Below, in pieces: positions 5,891 through 59,704 of a stretch of 64,000 nt of DNA. The notes beneath the pieces are model-generated. The model saw only the letters and a program-made list of their open reading frames with translations. It was not told the DNA's origin and searched no databases. Numbering within the stretch: the stretch's first letter is position 1; each line of letters opens with the position of its first letter. Position numbers and translations under genes: made by a program. This DNA is from a virus. The DNA lies in IMG/VR virus record IMGVR_UViG_3300045988_129927. One strand, 5' to 3'.

Positions 5891-5912
5891 AAAATAAATT
5901 AAAGTACTGTTT

Positions 5913-5944
5913 ATTAGAGAGACAGTAAATACTGTCTCTCTAAT
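5913..5944 (+). terminator. hairpin terminator
   Basis: 14-bp stem ATTAGAGAGACAGT/ACTGTCTCTCTAAT with loop AAAT, downstream of 5315..5890. Confidence 0.6.
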
Positions 5945-5971
5945 AGATTTACTATGTGTTTTAAAATAAAA

Positions 5972-7082: not shown

Positions 7083-7143
7083 AGTAAACTCCTTAAGTTT
7101 GTTGTTGAAAGAATTAAATTGGAAAGATTCCTCTCTCTTTCCA
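7080..7143 (-). repeat. 64-nt leader module, copy 1 (identical to 22943..23006)
   Basis: CATAGTAAACTCCTTAAGTTTGTTGTTGAAAGAATTAAATTGGAAAGATTCCTCTCTCTTTCCA on the plus strand. It spans the start codon, SD and leader hairpin, up to the promoter motif. Confidence 0.9.
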
Positions 7144-7158
7144 CTATAGTAGTATATG
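7141..7158 (-). promoter_or_regulatory. early-type promoter motif
   Basis: CATATACTACTATAGTGG, 59 nt upstream of the ATG at 7082. The leader hairpin GGAAAGA/TCTTTCC is at 7121-7142. Confidence 0.5.
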
Positions 7159-7197
7159 TTTGAAAAAATCTAGAATACATTAAAACATAGTAATAAA

Positions 7198-7229
7198 TAG
7201 ACACTATACGGATATCCGTATAGTGTCTA
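7198..7229 (-). terminator. hairpin terminator
   Basis: 32-nt perfect palindrome TAGACACTATACGGATATCCGTATAGTGTCTA, downstream of 7243..8796. Confidence 0.6.
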
Positions 7230-7242
7230 AATATATTAGTTA

Positions 7243-22945: not shown

Positions 22946-23006
22946 AGTAAACTCCTTAAGTTTGTTGTTGAAAGAATTAAATTGGAAAGATTCCTCTCTC
23001 TTTCCA
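22943..23006 (-). repeat. 64-nt leader module, copy 2 (identical to 7080..7143)
   Basis: Checked letter by letter against copy 1. Identity ends at the ATG on one side and at the promoter motif on the other. Confidence 0.9.
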
Positions 23007-23022
23007 TTTTAATAGTATATAT
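23004..23022 (-). promoter_or_regulatory. early-type promoter motif
   Basis: ATATATACTATTAAAATGG, 59 nt upstream of the ATG at 22945. The leader hairpin GGAAAGA/TCTTTCC is at 22984-23005. Confidence 0.5.
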
Positions 23023-23073
23023 CTGAATTAATCTAAATTAATTCAGACGACTTAGATACTTTGTATCGTAAGT
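23023..23073. other. conserved double-hairpin element, copy B
   Basis: Hairpin 1 is 23023-23046 (CTGAATTAAT/ATTAATTCAG). ACG is the linker. Hairpin 2 is 23050-23073 (ACTTAGATAC/GTATC-G-TAAGT with the same bulged G). Confidence 0.6.
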
Positions 23074-23106
23074 TATTTGAAATAAAATAAAATGTATTAG
23101 AGTATA

Positions 23107-23142
23107 TTAATAGACTAGGGTAATGTTACCCTAGTCTATTAA
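23107..23142 (-). terminator. hairpin terminator; arms identical to those of 22224..22253
   Basis: Stem TTAATAGACTAGGGT/ACCCTAGTCTATTAA, downstream of 23153..23389. Confidence 0.6.
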
Positions 23143-23152
23143 TATTTATTCT

Positions 23153-23389
23153 TTAGTCATTCAACATTCTGTTAAGCTTAAGCATATTTTCATTGATGAA
23201 TTTCAAACGAACTTTATCAGTAATCATTTTATCACCTTGCTCTTTCAGTTCATTGTGGCGTTTTTCAGCTGCACGATATACACTACCATCATCAGTATAA
23301 GCGTACCAGAAATCAAACCCATCGTACTTCTTAACGTATTCTTTTTCTACGTCAGTTAATACGAAGTTTTCTAAAGTATAATTTTCCAT
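23153..23389 (-). CDS. hypothetical protein (78 aa)
   Basis: The track ORF starts at 23422. The ATG at 23389 (MENYTLENF...) has TATATAAAGGAAAC upstream and lies downstream of the promoter motif, so the shorter form is preferred. Confidence 0.7.
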   Translation of the reverse strand: MENYTLENFVLTDVEKEYVKKYDGFDFWYAYTDDGSVYRAAEKRHNELKEQGDKMITDKVRLKFINENMLKLNRMLND

Positions 23390-23444
23390 TTTAGTTTCCT
23401 TTATATAAAGATTAAGAGACAATTCTCAATTTAATAGTATAGAT
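23387..23444 (-). repeat. promoter-leader module, copy 2 (near-identical to 906..965)
   Basis: Same block with one indel and one substitution. The downstream coding sequences are unrelated. Confidence 0.85.
23427..23442 (-). promoter_or_regulatory. early-type promoter motif
   Basis: CTATACTATTAAATTG, 38 nt upstream of the ATG at 23389. The leader hairpin GAGA/TCTC is at 23416-23427. Confidence 0.5.
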
Positions 23445-23461
23445 TTAAAAATAAACATAAT

Positions 23462-23506
23462 ACTATTACTACTAGACTACCCAATAGGTAGTCTAGTAGT
23501 AATAGT
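23462..23506 (-). terminator. hairpin terminator
   Basis: 20-bp perfect stem ACTATTACTACTAGACTACC/GGTAGTCTAGTAGTAATAGT with a 5-nt loop, 5 nt past the stop of 23511..23993. Confidence 0.65.
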
Positions 23507-23510
23507 CTTT

Positions 23511-27737: not shown

Positions 27738-27757
27738 GTTGTTTTCCTTTATAAAAC

Positions 27758-27796
27758 AATAGGTCCAACATATTAATAGTATATATCAGACCTATT
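27758..27796 (-). terminator. hairpin after the beta C-terminal gene, with a promoter motif in its 23-nt loop
   Basis: 8-bp stem AATAGGTC/GACCTATT, 10 nt past the stop of 27806..30181. Confidence 0.4.
27769..27787 (-). promoter_or_regulatory. early-type promoter motif lying in the loop of hairpin 27758..27796
   Basis: GATATATACTATTAATATG, 32 nt upstream of the ATG at 27737. Confidence 0.45.
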
Positions 27797-27805
27797 ATTC
27801 ATTTT

Positions 27806-30181: not shown

Positions 30182-30244
30182 TTTGGTTTCCTTTTATAAG
30201 TGCTTCACTATACTAAAAGATAGAATAATACTATTCTATTTCTT

Positions 30245-30263
30245 CCAATTTAATAATATATAC
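30245..30263 (-). promoter_or_regulatory. early-type promoter motif
   Basis: GTATATATTATTAAATTGG, 64 nt upstream of the ATG at 30181. The leader hairpin ATAGAATA/TATTCTAT is at 30220-30239. Confidence 0.5.
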
Positions 30264-30279
30264 CTGAAAGGTTTTACAA

Positions 30280-30674: not shown

Positions 30675-30706
30675 CTAGATACACTACCATTTGGTAGTGT
30701 ATCTAG
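30675..30706. terminator. bidirectional hairpin terminator
   Basis: 14-bp stem CTAGATACACTACC/GGTAGTGTATCTAG with loop ATTT, between convergent 30280..30627 and 30717..32204. Confidence 0.65.
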
Positions 30707-33849: not shown

Positions 33850-35451
33850 TTAATTAAATTCGTCTTGAACAAACTCTTGTTCAGACTCTACTACCAACAT
33901 CAATTCACCGATTTTATTACGAATGTCAGAAGGTAGAATCAAGCGTTTATCACGTGTGACTAAATTGGATTCTTCTAACCATTTTTCTGGCAATGTCAAT
34001 AACCAATTATATTCAAACAATCCTTTATGGATTAATTCAATACAACCAATATACGACATATTGCGTTTTTCTGATTTAGTAATCCCACCTAAATCATAGG
34101 TTTTTGCCAGGCGTTCAGATAAACCTGCTTCCAGATTTTTACGATAACTTGGTTGAACAAATGTAGAATCACGATTGGGTTGTAAAGCAATCGCTGAAAT
34201 CACTGCTGCAAATTCATGAAATCCTTTATGCCAAAGAATAGCACGAACCAAACCAATTAAGTTAATCAACTCATTTAATTCCAAATGGTCGAAAATCACT
34301 GTATTAACAGAACGATGTACTATCCATTTGGTAATGGTTAATTGTACATCTTGAATTGGTTTCATGTACTGTCTATCTTCTGACAAGTAGCTATAGTTGG
34401 TATTCATTTGCATGATATTATCCATGGATTCCAAGTATAAATCTTCAGGCAAATCTGGACACAATGATTGAATCAAACGTTGATGGTCTGAAATAGCTAA
34501 CTTCAAGAACATCTTTTCATCAGCCAATAAACGTGAACGAACAAAGCCAACATCTAATACAGACTGTGAGTTAGATTCATTACCTTTCTTATCTTCTACA
34601 GGATTCTTCTTCATTTGGATTTGAGTAGAATCAGCACCATAAGATTTTGAAGCCTGTTTGATTTTATTAGACAAGAAGAAATAAGTTTGTGCAATCAAAT
34701 GATACGAATCATCATTACCTGAAATATCACCTTGAGCAATCTTCTTCAAGATAATAACAGAATACAGGTAATTATAGAAATCGTCTTCTGATAAACCAGA
34801 TACCAATACAGCATTAGTCTCTAACTTCAGTTTAGTATTTGCAATAAACTCACGTAAGCGATTCTCGGCTGTACAGATATAGTTCTTCTCTGGATTAGAT
34901 ACCATGCATGTATCGTATAAGATTTCCATCGAATACACTTCTTTAGCATCTTTACCAAATTCACTATTTAATCGATTATGTATATCACCCCAAATAGGAG
35001 CGACAAATCGTAATGCGAGTGAGTATGTTACCAAATCTAAATAGTCTTGATAGACATAAGTCGTTTGTGGGTCGTAGTTAGTTTCCTTTTTATTGGAAAC
35101 ATACACTGGCGTATTAGGGAGGGTAATCCAGTGTTTCATTTCATCTAGATTCACTTTAGCGTAAATCTTAATAAAATGTTTATTCAATACTCCAATCAAA
35201 CGATTAACATCATTGATTTCAAGAATAGATTTTTTGATATCTTTATAGATTTCAAAAATTTCTTTGTGCCATTGTGCTGGCTTGGTCTTTAACCATTCAT
35301 TAAATTCTAAGAATGGAGAAGCTGCTGCCATGACATCATGGTTATCTCGACCTTTCTTATAATAGGTCATTGAGAATGACACAGACTCATTCTGATAACA
35401 GACGAGTACATTGGCCTTTGTACTGTCCATTTCAAAAGTTATGTAGTTCAT
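33850..35451 (-). CDS. hypothetical protein (533 aa)
   Basis: Track ORF with AAAAGGAAA SD. The early-type promoter motif lies 50 nt upstream. Confidence 0.8.
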   Translation of the reverse strand: MNYITFEMDSTKANVLVCYQNESVSFSMTYYKKGRDNHDVMAAASPFLEFNEWLKTKPAQWHKEIFEIYKDIKKSILEINDVNRLIGVLNKHFIKIYAKVNLDEMKHWITLPNTPVYVSNKKETNYDPQTTYVYQDYLDLVTYSLALRFVAPIWGDIHNRLNSEFGKDAKEVYSMEILYDTCMVSNPEKNYICTAENRLREFIANTKLKLETNAVLVSGLSEDDFYNYLYSVIILKKIAQGDISGNDDSYHLIAQTYFFLSNKIKQASKSYGADSTQIQMKKNPVEDKKGNESNSQSVLDVGFVRSRLLADEKMFLKLAISDHQRLIQSLCPDLPEDLYLESMDNIMQMNTNYSYLSEDRQYMKPIQDVQLTITKWIVHRSVNTVIFDHLELNELINLIGLVRAILWHKGFHEFAAVISAIALQPNRDSTFVQPSYRKNLEAGLSERLAKTYDLGGITKSEKRNMSYIGCIELIHKGLFEYNWLLTLPEKWLEESNLVTRDKRLILPSDIRNKIGELMLVVESEQEFVQDEFN

Positions 35452-35500
35452 TTTGATTTCCTTTTAATTAAAAGAAGTGGAATATTATCACTAACATCCA

Positions 35501-35519
35501 CCATTATAATATTATATAC
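35501..35519 (-). promoter_or_regulatory. early-type promoter motif
   Basis: GTATATAATATTATAATGG, 50 nt upstream of the ATG at 35451. Confidence 0.4.
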
Positions 35520-35537
35520 TAGAAATAATATATAATA

Positions 35538-35565
35538 CTAGAGACTCTTAGGAAAGAGTCTCTAG
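35538..35565 (-). terminator. hairpin terminator
   Basis: 12-bp stem CTAGAGACTCTT/AAGAGTCTCTAG with loop AGGA, downstream of 35583..36302. Confidence 0.6.
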
Positions 35566-35582
35566 TTTAGCTTTTAAATTAA

Positions 35583-41967: not shown

Positions 41968-43953
41968 TTAGTAGTTGTTACCACTAGCGTTTACGGCACT
42001 ACTCCAGCGTGCACCAAACAGAGAGCTACGTTGTGTGTTGCTTGAAGTTTGGTTAGACAGGATAGAACGACCCAAAGATTCAATCATTGCTGCGCCAATG
42101 TAGTTTGCAAACATGGTTTGACCGAAGTTAGCCACAGCGTTGCGGTTAATCAGACGTGGGCCTACTTCCAACATACATTGATGTACAGCGCGAGCGTAGA
42201 TGTTTTCAATTTCCAAACGTACACCGTAACCTACGATACGAGCGTGTGGCAACAGAGTACCTACGATTTCTTGTTGAATACCAATGCCTTGTTGTACTTC
42301 CAGTCGCACGTCAGATTGAGCACCTACCAATGCACGAGTGAATTCCAGGTTTTCTTTAATGCCGTTAACGTTATTGTCCAAGAACAAACGGTCAACGTCT
42401 TGCAGAGAACGCAATTCGTTAGTTTGTGCATTGTGGTATTGACCTACCAGGTAACGACGATTTGGCAGAGTAAACACCACACGACCAGTACCACCCAAAG
42501 AAGAGTAAACTTCTTTAAAGCGACCGCCGAACAAGTGGTTAGTTACAGCCAAGATTTTAGCATTTTCAGAATCAGGTTGTACTGCAACATGGTCTTCTTC
42601 AAACGCTGCGTTTACAAAGTCAGCCATCATCCATTCAGTAGGAGTACCCAAACCTACATCGATTGCAAATGATGTAGAATCCAAGAAGTAACGACCAATG
42701 ATGTCCAAGTAATCATTTTCAGATACATTTGGGTCAGTGGCTGGAGTTGGGAATGGGGCGAACTCAGGCAGACGGAACATTTCAGAGGCTTCGTAACCCA
42801 AACCTGCGATTGAATGCTGCCAATCGTTAGGATGTTTCAGTGGGTTCAATGCTTCGTAGATGTACCAGTAGTCTGCAAATGTAGCGCCAATACCTACACC
42901 CAATGCATAGATGATATTACCCAAAGATTGTGCGCGAGTTGGCATCAAGCTGGTAAATACATTTACTGGCAAGAAGATTTGCTCGTCAGTAGATTGAGCC
43001 AATTTCTTACGTGCCCATGGAGAGTCAACGTGAGTAGTGTTGGCTGGGTTTACCATTACTACGTCAGTGTAACCACAGATAGAGAATACTTCTTTAGCTA
43101 CAGAGCCACCTACAAAACCTACATTGTTTTGTTGTACTTGGCGAGCATTTACAACATGTTGCCAATCAGCACGAACTGGGTTACCGTGGAAGTCTTTAAT
43201 CACACCACCAAGCAGCTTGCGTTCTACTTCGAGGGTTTCTTTCTTGTTGTCGTATTCCAACAAGTTAATATCCTCAAGCTTACCTTGTGCTTCGTTAAAT
43301 GCAGCGAATGCTTTCAGGGTACATGCGTTAATTGCATTCAGAAGAGCTGGTTGAATTTCTTTCTTGTCTTCGAAGTTTACGAAGTCAGTGAAGATTGGGC
43401 AACCACCAGCGAATACAACATCATTAGTACCCAAGCAATCACGAGCAGCTTGCAACAAGAATTGTACAATGTTGTCAGCTTCGAAGATTTGAGATGGGAA
43501 TGTATTGATTGTGTACGCACGTTGGCCTGGTGCATTTTGAGTGGTTTCAGTAGTCAGAGTAGAATCTGATGTACAGATTACCAGTGCATAAACGCCATGA
43601 GGGCCTTTCAGTTCTGTGTCACGGGTAGTAACCAAGAGGATGTCCATACCAAGGTCATGGTTGTTTCGGTCGAGTGGGTAGAAACCCAGTTCCAGTCGGT
43701 TAGATTGGGTGCTCTCTTTGATGATGGTTTTCATTTGTTCAACCATCTTCATCAAGCCATCGTTTACGACGGTGAAGGTAGAACCGAACAAACCTTCTTG
43801 AGAAGCGAATGTAAAGCCAGTGCGTTTAGGTTGTTGGCTTTGTGTGTTGTTGCTGGTAGTGTTACCAGAGTTGCTGTTACCGGCGATTTTGCCGATGTCT
43901 TCCATGCTATTAACGGAAGGTTGTTGTGGTTGGCGTTTGTCATTAATTGCCAT
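41968..43953 (-). CDS. candidate phage-nucleus shell protein (chimallin/ChmA-like), 661 aa
   Basis: It sits immediately upstream of, and co-oriented with, the beta-prime N-terminal gene, as for gp54/gp55 in phiKZ. The size is about 70 kDa. It has the strongest codon bias in the window. It has a low-complexity N-terminal ~45 aa and a C-terminal tail. A promoter motif lies upstream. No direct homology check was possible. Confidence 0.5.
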   Translation of the reverse strand: MAINDKRQPQQPSVNSMEDIGKIAGNSNSGNTTSNNTQSQQPKRTGFTFASQEGLFGSTFTVVNDGLMKMVEQMKTIIKESTQSNRLELGFYPLDRNNHDLGMDILLVTTRDTELKGPHGVYALVICTSDSTLTTETTQNAPGQRAYTINTFPSQIFEADNIVQFLLQAARDCLGTNDVVFAGGCPIFTDFVNFEDKKEIQPALLNAINACTLKAFAAFNEAQGKLEDINLLEYDNKKETLEVERKLLGGVIKDFHGNPVRADWQHVVNARQVQQNNVGFVGGSVAKEVFSICGYTDVVMVNPANTTHVDSPWARKKLAQSTDEQIFLPVNVFTSLMPTRAQSLGNIIYALGVGIGATFADYWYIYEALNPLKHPNDWQHSIAGLGYEASEMFRLPEFAPFPTPATDPNVSENDYLDIIGRYFLDSTSFAIDVGLGTPTEWMMADFVNAAFEEDHVAVQPDSENAKILAVTNHLFGGRFKEVYSSLGGTGRVVFTLPNRRYLVGQYHNAQTNELRSLQDVDRLFLDNNVNGIKENLEFTRALVGAQSDVRLEVQQGIGIQQEIVGTLLPHARIVGYGVRLEIENIYARAVHQCMLEVGPRLINRNAVANFGQTMFANYIGAAMIESLGRSILSNQTSSNTQRSSLFGARWSSAVNASGNNY

Positions 43954-44054
43954 TTTGATTTCCTTTTCTTAAGAATGTTAAATTAAGCTTAATTAAACAC
44001 GGCTGTATTAGCCTTGTTTGTAATATGTAATATTGACATCAATACTACCTACTA

Positions 44055-44072
44055 CACTTTAATGATATATTA
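44055..44072 (-). promoter_or_regulatory. early-type promoter motif (divergent copy)
   Basis: TAATATATCATTAAAGTG, 102 nt upstream of the ATG at 43953. The leader hairpin at 44027-44048 is complete only as minus-strand RNA (one G.U pair). Confidence 0.4.
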
Positions 44073-44285
44073 CCATAATTTTTTTAAATACATTAAAAAT
44101 TAATGTTTTCTCATGTATATAATAAAATAGATATTATATCTCCTAGGGTCGATACTCTCATGAGTATCTAATTCGTACATATTCATATATAGGTATATTC
44201 AAGTTTTATCTTAGTATAATAAATAATAAAATCTTATGATGATACTTTTATTCTATTACCTATTTAAATAAGAAAGACTATAAAT

Positions 44286-48475: not shown

Positions 48476-48841
48476 TTAAACTTCAGTGGCACTACCTGAG
48501 CGAGCATTACGGCGAGATTCCTCACCAGTTACAGCATCACCGGCACCTGCGCGACCTGCTTCGGCATTTACTGGAGGTACGAAGTTAGCGCGGTTGGTAG
48601 CTGCATCACTACCAGTTTCTTCTTTACCAGCTTTACCATCAGCTTTTTCTTCTTTAGCTGGTGGTAATTCACCACGATACATTGCTTTACGGTTTTTCAC
48701 CAATTGGTCATTGTGTTCGTCTTTAGGCAAAGTCTCATCATTGTAAACAACTTTCAGACCAGCAATCAAAGTAGAATCAGATTCCAAAGGTTTCTCAGTA
48801 GGTTCTAGCTCAATAGGGAGCTTAGGGAATTTTTTAGACAT
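48476..48841 (-). CDS. hypothetical charged, probably disordered protein (121 aa)
   Basis: Track ORF with AAAAAAGGA SD and G+C-rich codon use. The terminator at 48431..48462 is perfect only as minus-strand RNA. Confidence 0.75.
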   Translation of the reverse strand: MSKKFPKLPIELEPTEKPLESDSTLIAGLKVVYNDETLPKDEHNDQLVKNRKAMYRGELPPAKEEKADGKAGKEETGSDAATNRANFVPPVNAEAGRAGAGDAVTGEESRRNARSGSATEV

Positions 48842-48920
48842 TATAATATCCTTTTTTCAATTTAAAGATTAACATTAATCGAGTATCCATCGACCTCATA
48901 AAAACATAATAAACTATTTC

Positions 48921-48950
48921 CCTCTAGAGTAGGATATCCTACTCTAGAGG
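48921..48950 (-). terminator. hairpin terminator closing the ORF-free unit
   Basis: 30-nt perfect palindrome CCTCTAGAGTAGGATATCCTACTCTAGAGG. Confidence 0.55.
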
Positions 48951-49318
48951 TACTATAGCTTTTCTTTTCATCAACTTCTCTTAAAAGGAAACCAAAACGA
49001 TTCAGTGATTACCGTCCCTGTTTAATACACTGATTGAGGTGGTCGTTAGGTCATTATCCACCTATGGAAATTTTCGGTACTTGTATTCGCTTCCATGTGT
49101 AGCCTAATTCCAGCGGAGAGTGAACGAGGAGTGGCCGGATGTGACTAGTTATAGAATTTCTATCTATCGTAAAACTTTGTTTAGAAGTGTACCGAGGGAT
49201 TACCCTTACAATAGATATTCAGCCTTATTGTTTCTTCAACTATCAAAGGCAAACGAATAAAATCAACTTTAAATAAACAAACTAGGAAAATACGAACGAA
49301 GCAATTAGTCTTAAAAAT
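48921..49318 (-). ncRNA. candidate ~0.4-kb structured non-coding RNA (novel, unclassified)
   Basis: A promoter motif at 49336-49319 and a terminator hairpin at 48921-48950 bracket a stretch with no SD-led ORF. The core is relatively G+C-rich. Several helices can be paired by eye, and one contains a G.U pair only in the minus-strand sense. Confidence 0.35.
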
Positions 49319-49336
49319 CACTTTATTCATATATAG
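49319..49336 (-). promoter_or_regulatory. early-type promoter motif heading the ORF-free unit
   Basis: CTATATATGAATAAAGTG. It is closest to the 44055-44072 copy and begins 6 nt after the stop codon of 49343..49786. Confidence 0.35.
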
Positions 49337-49342
49337 TGTAAA

Positions 49343-49786
49343 TTAACGTTCTGATAATACGATTGAAATATCAGTATATCCTTGCATGGTTAATGCCTTA
49401 CGAATAATTTCAACGTCATTATTAGACACACCATTAATAGTCACTGTAATCTTATTAGGAGACGTTTCTTGAATAGTAGAACGATTAATCCAATCCATTG
49501 CATAGATTGTTTCTTTACCGTCTACACTCACTAGCTTGACATAAGTCATGTCAAATGGATTATTATTATAACCTGGTGGTAGGTGTGGTTTCATTCTTTC
49601 ATGGAATGACTTAATGTCTAGACCTGAAGAAATGGCTGTTTGTGCATTCATTACTGCTAGACACTCTACGTTAATTAAGCGAGTACCTAGTACTTCTGGT
49701 GAATAGGTATCAAATGAATAGACTTTACCTACTTCTAGTTGTCGAATAGTCTTAGTTGTATTTGTCGGATTTGCTGTATTTGTCAT
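49343..49786 (-). CDS. hypothetical protein (147 aa)
   Basis: Track ORF, starting 4 nt after the upstream stop. Confidence 0.75.
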   Translation of the reverse strand: MTNTANPTNTTKTIRQLEVGKVYSFDTYSPEVLGTRLINVECLAVMNAQTAISSGLDIKSFHERMKPHLPPGYNNNPFDMTYVKLVSVDGKETIYAMDWINRSTIQETSPNKITVTINGVSNNDVEIIRKALTMQGYTDISIVLSER

Positions 49787-52822: not shown

Positions 52823-52897
52823 TCTATTTCCTTTTTATAAATAATTACTCTTCATAATTTTCTTTTCCCGTAAATATTTCTACGAAAAAACCGTCTT

Positions 52898-52916
52898 CAA
52901 GTTAATAATATATACG
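52898..52916 (-). promoter_or_regulatory. early-type promoter motif
   Basis: CGTATATATTATTAACTTG, 76 nt upstream of the ATG at 52822. Confidence 0.45.
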
Positions 52917-52970
52917 AGAATAAAAATAGAGTAACGTATGAATATTACACAGTTTTATAAGGAGTTTGTG

Positions 52971-54410: not shown

Positions 54411-54442
54411 CTATAGTAGAGAGGATATCCTCTCTACTATAG
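54411..54442. terminator. bidirectional hairpin terminator
   Basis: 32-nt perfect palindrome CTATAGTAGAGAGGATATCCTCTCTACTATAG, between convergent 53799..54395 and 54449..55225. Confidence 0.65.
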
Positions 54443-57396: not shown

Positions 57397-57434
57397 TTTA
57401 AGGTTTCCTTTTTAAAGATTAAGTTTAAATAAAA

Positions 57435-57467
57435 TACTGAAGGAAACAGGATTAGTCCCCTTCAGTA
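57435..57467 (-). promoter_or_regulatory. leader hairpin, possibly an attenuator or terminator, between promoter motif and gene 56899..57396
   Basis: TACTGAAGG/CCTTCAGTA stem with a 15-nt loop. In the minus-strand sense it is followed by AUUUUAUUU. It lies downstream of the promoter motif. Confidence 0.4.
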
Positions 57468-57479
57468 AAATAGTATAGG
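57463..57479 (-). promoter_or_regulatory. early-type promoter motif
   Basis: CCTATACTATTTTACTG, 67 nt upstream of the ATG at 57396. It overlaps the 5' arm of hairpin 57435-57467. Confidence 0.45.
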
Positions 57480-57494
57480 TTTGAAAATATTTTA
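57469..57494 (-). repeat. 26-nt promoter-upstream block, copy 1 (identical to 59619..59644)
   Basis: AATAGTATAGGTTTGAAAATATTTTA on the plus strand. Confidence 0.85.
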
Positions 57495-57510
57495 TCTACT
57501 GCTTGATGGT

Positions 57511-59355: not shown

Positions 59356-59387
59356 TTTGATTTCCTTTATTTAAAAAATAAGATTAA

Positions 59388-59418
59388 GATTACCCTATGG
59401 TTTTTCCATAGGGTAATC
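59388..59418 (-). terminator. hairpin terminator
   Basis: 13-bp stem GATTACCCTATGG/CCATAGGGTAATC with loop TTTTT. A U-rich run follows in the minus-strand sense. It lies downstream of the small ORF 59430..59558. Confidence 0.6.
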
Positions 59419-59429
59419 AGATAGCTAAA

Positions 59430-59558
59430 TTACTTTTTGTTTTGTTCAAAGAACTTTTTGTATTTCTCGTAATTTGTTGATACTTTATAAATACCAATAC
59501 ATGCGAGAAGTGAGAAAATAAATAATGCGATAACGATTGCAAAAATCAGTTTAATCAT
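59430..59558 (-). CDS. small hydrophobic protein (42 aa), signal-peptide/lipobox-like ...LSLLAC
   Basis: Not in the track. The ATG at 59558 is preceded by TTTATAAAGGAAA. Peptide: MIKLIFAIVIALFILSLLACIGIYKVSTNYEKYKKFFEQNKK. It is the first ORF behind an early-type promoter motif, and a hairpin follows the stop. Confidence 0.5.
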   Translation of the reverse strand: MIKLIFAIVIALFIFSLLACIGIYKVSTNYEKYKKFFEQNKK

Positions 59559-59612
59559 TTTTAATTTCCTTTATAAAAAGTTAATAAATAAGGTAGAAAG
59601 ATTCGACTCTTT

Positions 59613-59629
59613 CATGTGAATAGTATAGG
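59613..59629 (-). promoter_or_regulatory. early-type promoter motif
   Basis: CCTATACTATTCACATG, 55 nt upstream of the ATG at 59558. The leader hairpin GAAAGA/TCTTTC is at 59596-59613. Confidence 0.45.
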
Positions 59630-59644
59630 TTTGAAAATATTTTA
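59619..59644 (-). repeat. 26-nt promoter-upstream block, copy 2 (identical to 57469..57494)
   Basis: AATAGTATAGGTTTGAAAATATTTTA on the plus strand. A related version, GTAGTATATGTTTGAAAAAATC, occurs at 7149-7170. Confidence 0.85.
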
Positions 59645-59704
59645 AAAAGTTATGAATGACTAATTTATTTTACTATTTAATACATTTAACATAAAGGACA
59701 GAAA

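Follow-up and report, generated by a model that had tools for sequence, protein, structure and literature searches.

The 64,000-nucleotide (nt) stretch of viral DNA considered here (IMG/VR record IMGVR_UViG_3300045988_129927; "the window" below means the whole of this stretch) contains a 501-nt gap, 48842-49342, between two minus-strand genes, and we conclude that this gap is, in all likelihood, a genuine non-coding RNA gene. Its position is conserved among relatives, it is bounded by promoter and terminator motifs, it is under purifying selection, and it has both a strand-specific structure and a segment complementary to the ribosome-binding sites of the phage. The fuller reading, in which a discrete folded RNA of ~410 nt acts by base pairing with phage ribosome-binding sites, is offered more cautiously, as one that falls just short of probable, and the pairing mechanism judged as a claim in its own right is doubtful.

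The gene upstream of the gap (49343-49786) encodes SH3DP, an SH3-fold protein associated with phage DNA polymerases (PF20287), and 3' of the gap lie, in this order, the gene of a protein of 121 amino acids (aa; 48476-48841) and that of a divergent family-B DNA polymerase (PolB, PF20286). As the window also encodes the nuclear-shell protein chimallin (phrog_4795; gene 41968-43953) and an RNA polymerase beta subunit, we assign it to a distant chimallivirus. The closest PolB matches in GenBank phages are ~35% identical at most, so that no annotated genome could be used for comparison, and BLASTN searches with the gap and its flanks against GenBank phages gave no matches. The initial annotation, made from the nucleotide sequence, had pointed to a gap of about 500 nt between co-oriented genes, lacking any open reading frame (ORF) of 60 aa or more on either strand and richer in G+C than other intergenic DNA of the window. 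Each of these observations holds: the longest ORF has 49 codons (49330->49181), the core at 48951-49180 has 39% G+C as against 18-34% in most other spacers and 34% window-wide, and the gap is the largest ORF-free interval separating co-oriented genes in the window.

To place the gap in an evolutionary context, SH3DP homologues 60-100% identical to that of the window were gathered from IMG/VR, ENA, Logan and NCBI assemblies; the relatives include genome-size contigs of ~230-265 kb, and their sources include human oral metagenome and HMP-style sample records. In every homologue with enough downstream sequence an ORF-free gap of 450-1100 nt begins after the SH3DP stop codon, and beyond it, wherever the contigs extend far enough, come a small protein gene and PolB. 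The gaps sort into six sequence clusters, namely a window-type cluster (gap ~500 nt), L021 (546 nt), L023 (612 nt), an L031-type (~456 nt), an L055-type (~455 nt) and an L025-type cluster (~950-1100 nt, 43% G+C); a metagenome scan with the SH3DP alignment added members to these and no new cluster. BLASTN and nhmmer detected no similarity among the six clusters except for ~30 nt at the promoter of the window and L021 types, and an nhmmer profile of the window cluster found nothing significant in the others. The layout is common to all six: TATGA stands where the gap begins or close by, a perfect hairpin lies towards the end of the gap, at the same relative position in each cluster and with a different sequence each time, and a second TATGA comes after this hairpin, ahead of the next gene.

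Within the window cluster the gap is 92-95% identical to its counterparts in five close relatives. In the same five relatives the third-codon positions of six flanking genes are 76-90% identical (PolB 83-86%), and four of the five comparisons give 87-91% identity for a neighbouring 104-nt spacer. The gap is thus more conserved than the third-codon positions around it, which argues for purifying selection on DNA that codes for no protein.

Several conventional explanations of the interval were tried and rejected. A protein-coding gene or pseudogene does not fit the want of any ORF of at least 60 aa and the occurrence of indels that are not multiples of three; the longest gap ORFs change place and strand both between and within clusters, and the small ORFs of the gap, the 49-codon one included, gave no credible Pfam or PHROG match. 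The 49-codon ORF itself has no Shine-Dalgarno sequence, and its ATG shares nucleotides with the TATG start site; +1 and other indels abolish it in L003 and L078, and the other clusters have no counterpart of it. A decayed gene, which the initial annotation had named as an alternative, is likewise disfavored by the lack of any protein-family remnant or conserved ORF. A group I or group II intron was dismissed as the gap sits between complete genes having their own stop and start codons; the sole intron-model match in it was to plastid group II D1, which scored 19.7 bits where the gathering score is 140.

The late promoters of the phiKZ non-virion RNA polymerase (nvRNAP) consist of 5'-TATG-3' with the G as +1, and this sequence is necessary, not sufficient, with downstream determinants needed too (PMC4666361). 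The gap carries the TATG of a putative promoter of this phiKZ-type late class at 49331-49328, and analogy puts the predicted start of the RNA at G 49328; a start there would cut the ATG of the 49-codon ORF and put a 12-bp hairpin exactly at the 5' end of the RNA. The TATGA form, correctly oriented in intergenic DNA, precedes the starts of seven other genes of the window by 33-59 nt, and its density is 1.77 per kb in intergenic as against 0.63 per kb in coding DNA. The promoter motif does begin 6 nt after the upstream stop codon, as had been proposed, whereas the accompanying claim that it heads 12 genes could not be upheld: no further copy of the 18-mer CTATATATGAATAAAGTG turned up in the window when up to three mismatches were allowed, and the recurring part is the TATGA core. 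A scan for sigma-70 promoters and canonical terminators found nothing in the gap. The second TATG(A) motif, which follows the hairpin, is likely to be a separate promoter of the downstream genes. We also observed a near-copy of the gap promoter, CCTATATATGAATATG (TATG at 44187-44184, minus strand), in the interval 43954-44285, 234 nt upstream of the chimallin gene; it is succeeded by a hairpin, GATACTCATGAGAGTATC, and a different promoter-like motif, TAATATATCATTAAAGTG, lies nearer to the gene, so that there may be two promoters or another short RNA at this place.

The predicted 3' boundary is the perfect 30-nt palindrome at 48921-48950, which had been recognized in the initial annotation and whose 15-nt arms are indeed 100% complementary; its 13-bp stem and 4-nt loop have the form of the hairpin of an intrinsic terminator. 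Similar palindromes trail most stop codons in the window, and at many gene ends they are long, perfect and devoid of a T-run (for example 1540-1571, 5912-5945, 7193-7234, 23104-23145, 30675-30706 and 54411-54442). The hairpin of the gap and most gene-end palindromes being alike in this respect, they would represent a type of terminator or 3' end peculiar to the phage and not the canonical bacterial one.

The secondary structure of the window cluster was derived as an RNAalifold consensus from 18 distinct sequences, and comprises 100 pairs with 99.8% of cells paired. Four of these pairs show compensatory double changes, as against 1.4 +/- 0.8 in shuffled alignments (only 2 of 500 reach this number) and none in the slid controls. 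The clearest case is the hairpin termed H2, in which CAACG/CGUUG replaces CAGUG/CACUG in L076, amounting to two adjacent compensatory double changes, and whose third pair alternates between G-U and G-C. In a variable stem the pair 49144/49103 is U-A in 12 sequences, U-G in four and C-G in two, and in helix 1, the 5'-terminal hairpin, all three one-sided changes preserve pairing; by eye, several other clusters also have a hairpin at or just after TATG. Other parts of the fold are too constant to be informative in this manner. Helices 6-8 (49161..49217) are 100% paired and invariant in the window cluster and so offer no covariation test, and both strands of the long-range helix 3, TTATTCGTTTG and AAGCGAATA, are also present in L021, so that this helix is conserved in sequence and shows no covariation. 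The hairpin H1 is invariant within the window cluster too; at the position aligned with it by the covariance model, L021 has AGGUAG...CUACCU, a G-C to A-U exchange. In L021 and L031 the loop of H1 includes CCAAAAC, which, by eye, could form a pseudoknot with GUUUUGG. A closing helix between AAGCGAAUA and the conserved motif described below was dropped, as the consensus pairs GCGAAUA with UAUUCGU at 49253-49259 instead.

Three of the four helices that the initial annotation had paired by eye recur in this consensus. The 8-bp helix 49162-49169/49209-49216, with its minus-strand G-U, is part of a longer 49161-49171/49207-49217 stem; GGTGG/CCACC is extended to AGGTGG/CCACCT (49058-49063 with 49037-49042); and 49002-49007 with 49028-49033 is the helix with the two double changes in L076. 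The fourth, 49091-49096 with 49064-49069, is absent: ATGGAA at 49091-49096 pairs with 49151-49156 instead of with TTCCAT at 49064-49069.

A second and larger body of covariation comes from a cluster whose version of the RNA measures ~800 nt (11 sequences; L025 5458-6276 and relatives). Here the consensus has 229 pairs with 98.3% of cells paired, and 14 pairs show double changes as against 5.8 +/- 1.4 in shuffles, with none of 500 reaching this number. On the gene strand the consensus has an energy of -204.6 kcal/mol, as against -160.4 kcal/mol on the opposite strand; when the structure is mirrored onto the other strand only 84% of cells pair, many pairs being dependent on G-U, and from this failure it follows that the RNA strand is the gene strand. 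The 13 distinct sequences of the L055 type hardly differ from one another and have no compensatory double changes, so that they do not constitute a real covariation test. Some phages also have, and others lack, particular hairpin modules of the ~800-nt version (A3 columns 149-186, 320-347 and 535-569), such as AAUACGAGUAAUGAAUAUUACGAGUAAA in L036, L050, L053 and L069; these modules resemble expansion segments between invariant blocks. Taken with the Rfam, pseudogene, synteny and selection results, the covariation and strand-specific wobble pairing bear out the proposal of a discrete non-coding RNA gene made in the initial annotation.

TATGA motifs aside, the only sequence common to five of the six clusters is a short motif, (C)GUUUUGGUUUCCUU(UU), kept as GGTTTCCTT or GTTTCCTT and located in these five 4-40 nt upstream of the terminator hairpin. 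It had no place in the initial annotation and is new here. The complementarity of the motif to the consensus initiation region of the phage takes in the Shine-Dalgarno sequence, the spacer and the position of the start codon. This initiation region has an unusually long consensus, AAAAGGAAA(C/U)CAAAAUG, in the 25 nt before most start codons (for example 30182-30206, 35452-35476 and 43954-43978), which exceeds what pairing with the 16S rRNA tail explains. A search for TGGTTTCCTT with at most one mismatch gave 19 matches in the window against 5.2 expected; 18 of these are on the plus strand, mostly antisense to the ribosome-binding sites of minus-strand genes, and the motif at 48999-48983 is the single sense-strand copy. 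Duplex energies were computed for the motif 20-mer against positions -25 to +6 of 58 gene starts: the mean is -12.0 kcal/mol, with 44 of the 58 starts at -8 or better, as against means of -4.9 +/- 1.2 for other 20-mers of the same RNA (best -8.1) and -6.5 +/- 0.8 for the shuffled motif. The best predicted target is the RNA polymerase beta subunit gene, with 15 contiguous complementary nt and -25.3 kcal/mol, succeeded by gene 33850-35451 (-23.4) and chimallin (-20.8 kcal/mol). As an anti-initiation-region segment the motif ranks first among the 20-mers of the window RNA (z ~-6), and likewise among those of L021 (z -3.6) and L031 (z -2.8). In a scan of IMG/VR for the exact 15-mer motif, unrelated matches predominate among the matches listed. 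By computation, then, the RNA possesses the seed complementarity of a trans-acting antisense regulator of translation initiation.

These features suggest how such an RNA might be produced and act. Transcription of the minus strand from the phiKZ-type TATG promoter would begin near 49328, probably by the phage's own non-virion RNA polymerase, and would end at the 13-bp hairpin 48950-48921, yielding a discrete RNA of ~410 nt here and of ~800 nt in the cluster where it can be delimited. It would belong to an undescribed RNA family residing in the interval between SH3DP and the small disordered-protein gene with PolB in a clade of chimallin-encoding jumbo phages of human oral metagenomes. As the motif is complementary to the initiation region, the RNA could bind many ribosome-binding sites, and base pairing is preferred as its mode of action because it has a single conserved, weakly paired segment built for pairing: through its weakly structured and presumably accessible 3' motif, CGUUUUGGUUUCCUUUU, it would bind the ribosome-binding sites of many phage mRNAs and repress, damp or time their translation, with the mRNAs of the RNA polymerase beta subunit and chimallin as the best predicted partners. 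An extreme form of this proposal is conceivable, though we consider it unlikely: a global "anti-ribosome-binding-site" regulator, unrelated to described RNA families, in which one 17-nt seed masks or times the translation of much of the phage proteome while the body of 0.4-0.8 kb evolves freely. The T4 repressor RegA is a protein, and a global RNA regulator of this kind would be its RNA counterpart.

A number of observations weigh against this interpretation. The start, end and abundance of the RNA are predictions. The tail after the terminator stem, GAAAUAGUUUAUU, has no U-run of the kind that follows the stem of intrinsic terminators, and the palindrome could act on either strand. Single-sequence folding gives unexceptional z-scores of -1.55 for the minus and -1.34 for the plus strand, and since the folding energy is ordinary on both, thermodynamics alone is uninformative. 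Homology between clusters is suggested by position, short motifs and weak covariance-model matches: the model R1, built on the 3' domain, has full-length matches at orthologous places in L021, L031, L034 and L023, which are suggestive of such homology, and these score only 11-14 bits (E 0.2-0.4 over 85 kb for scores of 12-14 bits), with unrelated terminator palindromes scoring higher. As regards the motif, its predicted unpaired probabilities are moderate in the window RNA (0.1-0.7), reaching up to 0.9 in L021, and the consensus pairs its UUUUGGU with ACCGAAA and puts CUUUU in a weak, variable 5-bp hairpin. It is predicted to be paired in cis with GAGGUAACC in L055, where it is not the best anti-initiation segment; it is likewise weaker in this capacity in the ~800-nt cluster, where it is degenerate (GGUUCCUUUGG). 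Finally, tight control of dosage or timing would be needed if an RNA complementary to almost every ribosome-binding site of its own phage were to be useful.

The strongest rival, which we rate as unlikely, is that the structured RNA is a protein-binding scaffold or part of a ribonucleoprotein, with the U/C-rich motif serving as a contact for a protein or rRNA; candidate partners are the disordered 121-aa protein, the replication proteins, and the ribosome or its protein S1. The size and many helices of the RNA, and the present-or-absent modules of its ~800-nt version, are unlike short antisense regulators and speak for a scaffold, as do the bulk of conserved sequence outside the motif, the partial pairing of the motif in cis in some clusters, and the constant linkage to SH3DP, the small disordered-protein gene and PolB where contigs reach. 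However, no protein partner is identifiable, the 121-aa protein having no family match, and the motif matches the whole 15-17 nt initiation consensus, well beyond its pyrimidine tract, a match that a protein-binding site does not predict.

It is improbable that the gap is a cis-acting 5' leader or attenuator, in which the transcript from 49328 would enter the 121-aa gene and PolB unless terminated at the hairpin 48950-48921. The same-strand arrangement of promoter, folded leader, hairpin and genes is what such a leader would have, and its position directly upstream of replication genes is conserved. Against it, every one of the six clusters has the second TATGA beyond the hairpin, and its distance to the start codon, 33-59 nt, is the usual one; the downstream genes therefore probably have a promoter of their own. 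Moreover, the perfect 13-bp stem resembles those that end ordinary genes, there is no riboswitch or T-box family match, and no conserved anti-terminator pairing with the hairpin arm was seen, the arm varying from cluster to cluster while the motif upstream of it is constant.

Less probable again is a replication-origin transcript, in which the folded RNA would form an R-loop and prime DNA synthesis by analogy with known origin transcripts such as ColE1 RNA II and those of T4 and T7. A promoter of its own, the absence of an ORF, and a location just ahead of PolB and behind the polymerase-associated SH3DP gene would suit an origin. Yet a strong hairpin ends the RNA, the equivalent genes in phiKZ and PhiPA3 are separated by only ~190 nt, and neither iterons nor an AT-rich unwinding element were seen in the gap, whose core is relatively G+C-rich. 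GC skew, a weak indicator for such phages, tracks gene orientation and has no inflection at 49 kb.

We consider it very improbable that the motif is instead the plus-strand ribosome-binding site of a tiny or decayed gene on the opposite strand, with the gap as the remnant of that gene. On the plus strand it does read as a textbook initiation region, with a Shine-Dalgarno sequence and a 7-8 nt spacer before a "start codon" that is ACG in the window and L021, AUG in L055, UUG in L056 and L023, and ACA or AUU in L031; L023 also has a 52-codon opposite-strand ORF in that part of the gap. But the ORFs behind the motif, of 2-52 codons, are unrelated between clusters and unstable within them, the 3-codon ORF of the window losing its stop in L076, and by eye no plus-strand promoter motif was found upstream of the motif. 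The G-U pairs and one-sided changes of the structure fit the minus strand and become A-C mismatches on the plus strand, and the start of a dead gene is unlikely to have been kept while the remainder diverged beyond detection. Lastly, a spacer without function, or a scar left by a hotspot of deletions or insertions, with helices and motifs arising by chance in AT-rich DNA, would agree with folding energies not significantly better than those of shuffles, with clusters that cannot be aligned to one another and with the variable gap length, and is hardly credible given that the gap outconserves the third-codon positions of its flanking genes, that promoter, terminator and motif positions are kept across clusters, and that covariation exceeds shuffle and slide controls in two clusters.

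Returning to the preferred reading of a folded RNA acting by base pairing, we sought its place among known RNAs. At Rfam 15 gathering thresholds neither the 64-kb window nor any of 8 related loci gave a match, the families left unmatched including Intron_gpI, group II, T-box, riboswitches, 6S, tmRNA, GOLLD, ROOL and HEARO, and this agrees with the earlier statement that the RNA could not be placed in any known class. When the gap and the ~1-kb version were scanned permissively (E up to 10), the best matches were unrelated miRNA and snoRNA models at 14-20 bits and E 0.5-8, and no tRNA or tmRNA was found in the window. Literature searches returned no description of an RNA at the SH3DP-PolB locus, and none of a phage RNA whose sequence complements the consensus of ribosome-binding sites. 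Having neither an Rfam match nor a literature description, it is filed as a new RNA family, of the kind of phage-encoded regulatory or structured non-coding RNAs, with an unusual consensus-directed seed.

A close comparison is with the small RNAs (sRNAs) of chimalliviruses detected by ONT-cappable-seq, namely a phiKZ sRNA upstream of gp182, and sRNA005 and ten others of 201phi2-1 (PMC11512511, PMC10914365). The published units were selected at <250 bp, and 8 of 11 derive from 5' untranslated regions (UTRs) by premature termination (PMC11512511). Like them, the gap RNA would be non-coding, with a phage promoter and a hairpin terminator, and at least one of them is also position-conserved across genera. 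In contrast, their conserved one lies at a tail-protein gene, whereas the gap RNA, of 410-820 nt, is situated between SH3DP and PolB, stands alone and has a separate promoter downstream of it.

In terms of mechanism, RNAs of the P22 Sar, P1/P7 c4 and IS10 RNA-OUT type are ~70-80 nt long, act on one specific mRNA and are usually encoded opposite or adjacent to it. They too are element-encoded RNAs with a seed directed to the Shine-Dalgarno and start region so as to block initiation; the seed of the gap RNA differs in fitting the consensus of most genes and in being set within a large multi-helix RNA. The UCCC motifs of Staphylococcus aureus RNAIII and Rsa RNAs, the C-rich regions of RoxS/RsaE, and Listeria LhrC belong to host sRNAs whose loop seeds are often repeated. 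These C/U-rich motifs similarly pair with the Shine-Dalgarno sequences of many mRNAs, whereas the gap RNA has a single linear 17-nt motif reaching through the spacer to the start codon. GOLLD, ROOL, HEARO and OLE share with it a large size, many helices, variable expansion hairpins and a phage or metagenome origin; the gap RNA is smaller (0.4-0.8 kb) and gives no covariance-model match to them. The 3' tail of 16S rRNA carries the anti-Shine-Dalgarno sequence ...CCUCCUUUCU in low-G+C bacteria. The motif contains UCCUUU and would pair with the same AAAGGA of phage ribosome-binding sites; unlike the tail, it makes a match of 15-17 nt, longer than rRNA can make, lacks CCUCC, and has no other resemblance to rRNA.

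In nucleus-forming jumbo phages transcription takes place in the phage nucleus and translation in the cytoplasm. In the literature searched, the non-coding RNAs reported for such phages are short, mostly derived from 5' UTRs, and come from transcript mapping in Pseudomonas phages. To these the present analysis adds a position-conserved, constrained and structured candidate RNA gene of 0.4-0.8 kb, adjoining replication genes in a clade of uncultured phages from human oral metagenomes. If the pairing proposal were true, a virus would control its own translation programme through one RNA in a new way, and the motif would offer a natural design for broad masking of ribosome-binding sites; in either case the interval provides a candidate Rfam family and a testable entry to chimallivirus RNA biology. 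Knock-down by antisense oligomers has recently been shown to be effective for phiKZ-type phages (PMC12571901). The features of the locus are collected in Table 1.

Table 1. Elements of the SH3DP-PolB gap, observed or predicted, in order from the 5' end of the putative RNA
Feature	Coordinates	Strand	Remarks
Predicted non-coding RNA, ~410 nt	48918..49328	minus	predicted start site to just past the terminator hairpin
Promoter motif CACTATATATG	49328..49338	minus	TATG at 49331-49328; predicted start at G 49328
5'-terminal hairpin GAAUAAAGUGAUU / AAUUGCUUCGUUC	49294..49328	minus	helix 1; begins at +1; 12 pairs
49-codon ORF	49181..49330	minus	longest in the gap; rejected as a gene
Long-range helix 3, UAUUCGU with GCGAAUA	49084..49259	minus	49253-49259 with 49084-49090; closes the 5' domain
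11-bp stem with one G-U pair	49207-49217 with 49161-49171	minus	carries two small hairpins
Variable stem, UAGUC with GGCUA	49100..49147	minus	49143-49147 with 49100-49104
Hairpin H1, AGGUGG...CCACCU	49037..49063	minus	49058-49063 with 49037-49042
Hairpin H2, UCAGUG...CACUGA	49002..49033	minus	49028-49033 with 49002-49007
Conserved motif CGUUUUGGUUUCCUUUU, (C)GUUUUGGUUUCCUU(UU)	48983..48999	minus	reverse complement of the AAAAGGAAACCAAAA(C/U)G consensus
Terminator-like palindrome	48921..48950	minus	perfect; 13-bp stem, AUAU loop
Second TATG(A) motif	48897..48900	minus	59 nt upstream of the 121-aa gene start

The 121-aa protein encoded downstream (48476-48841, minus strand) is of low complexity and rich in Lys, Glu, Gly and Ala, and its gene reaches 48-57% G+C in a 34% G+C genome; Pfam and PHROG searches gave no family match for it. 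Between close relatives the gene shows many non-synonymous changes and indels. In the relatives the corresponding place holds a small gene of 94-163 codons wherever the contig reaches, and the two products that were read, those of the window and of L025, are both of low complexity.

A second promoter-like motif, TATA[CT]TATTAAATTG[AG], occurs upstream of ~10 genes of the window, usually after a terminator palindrome (805-1032, 2267-2501, 7083-7242, 22946-23510, 27738-27805, 30182-30279, 35452-35582, 52823-52937, 57397-57510 and 59356-59704). This class, which is distinct from TATGA, may represent the early promoter type, used by the virion polymerase. The longer gaps 805-1032, 22946-23510 and 59356-59704 hold short ORFs led by a Shine-Dalgarno sequence; one in 59356-59704 encodes a hydrophobic peptide of ~40 aa, MIKLIFAIVIALFIFSLLACIGIYK..., and length cut-offs in annotation would miss such ORFs.

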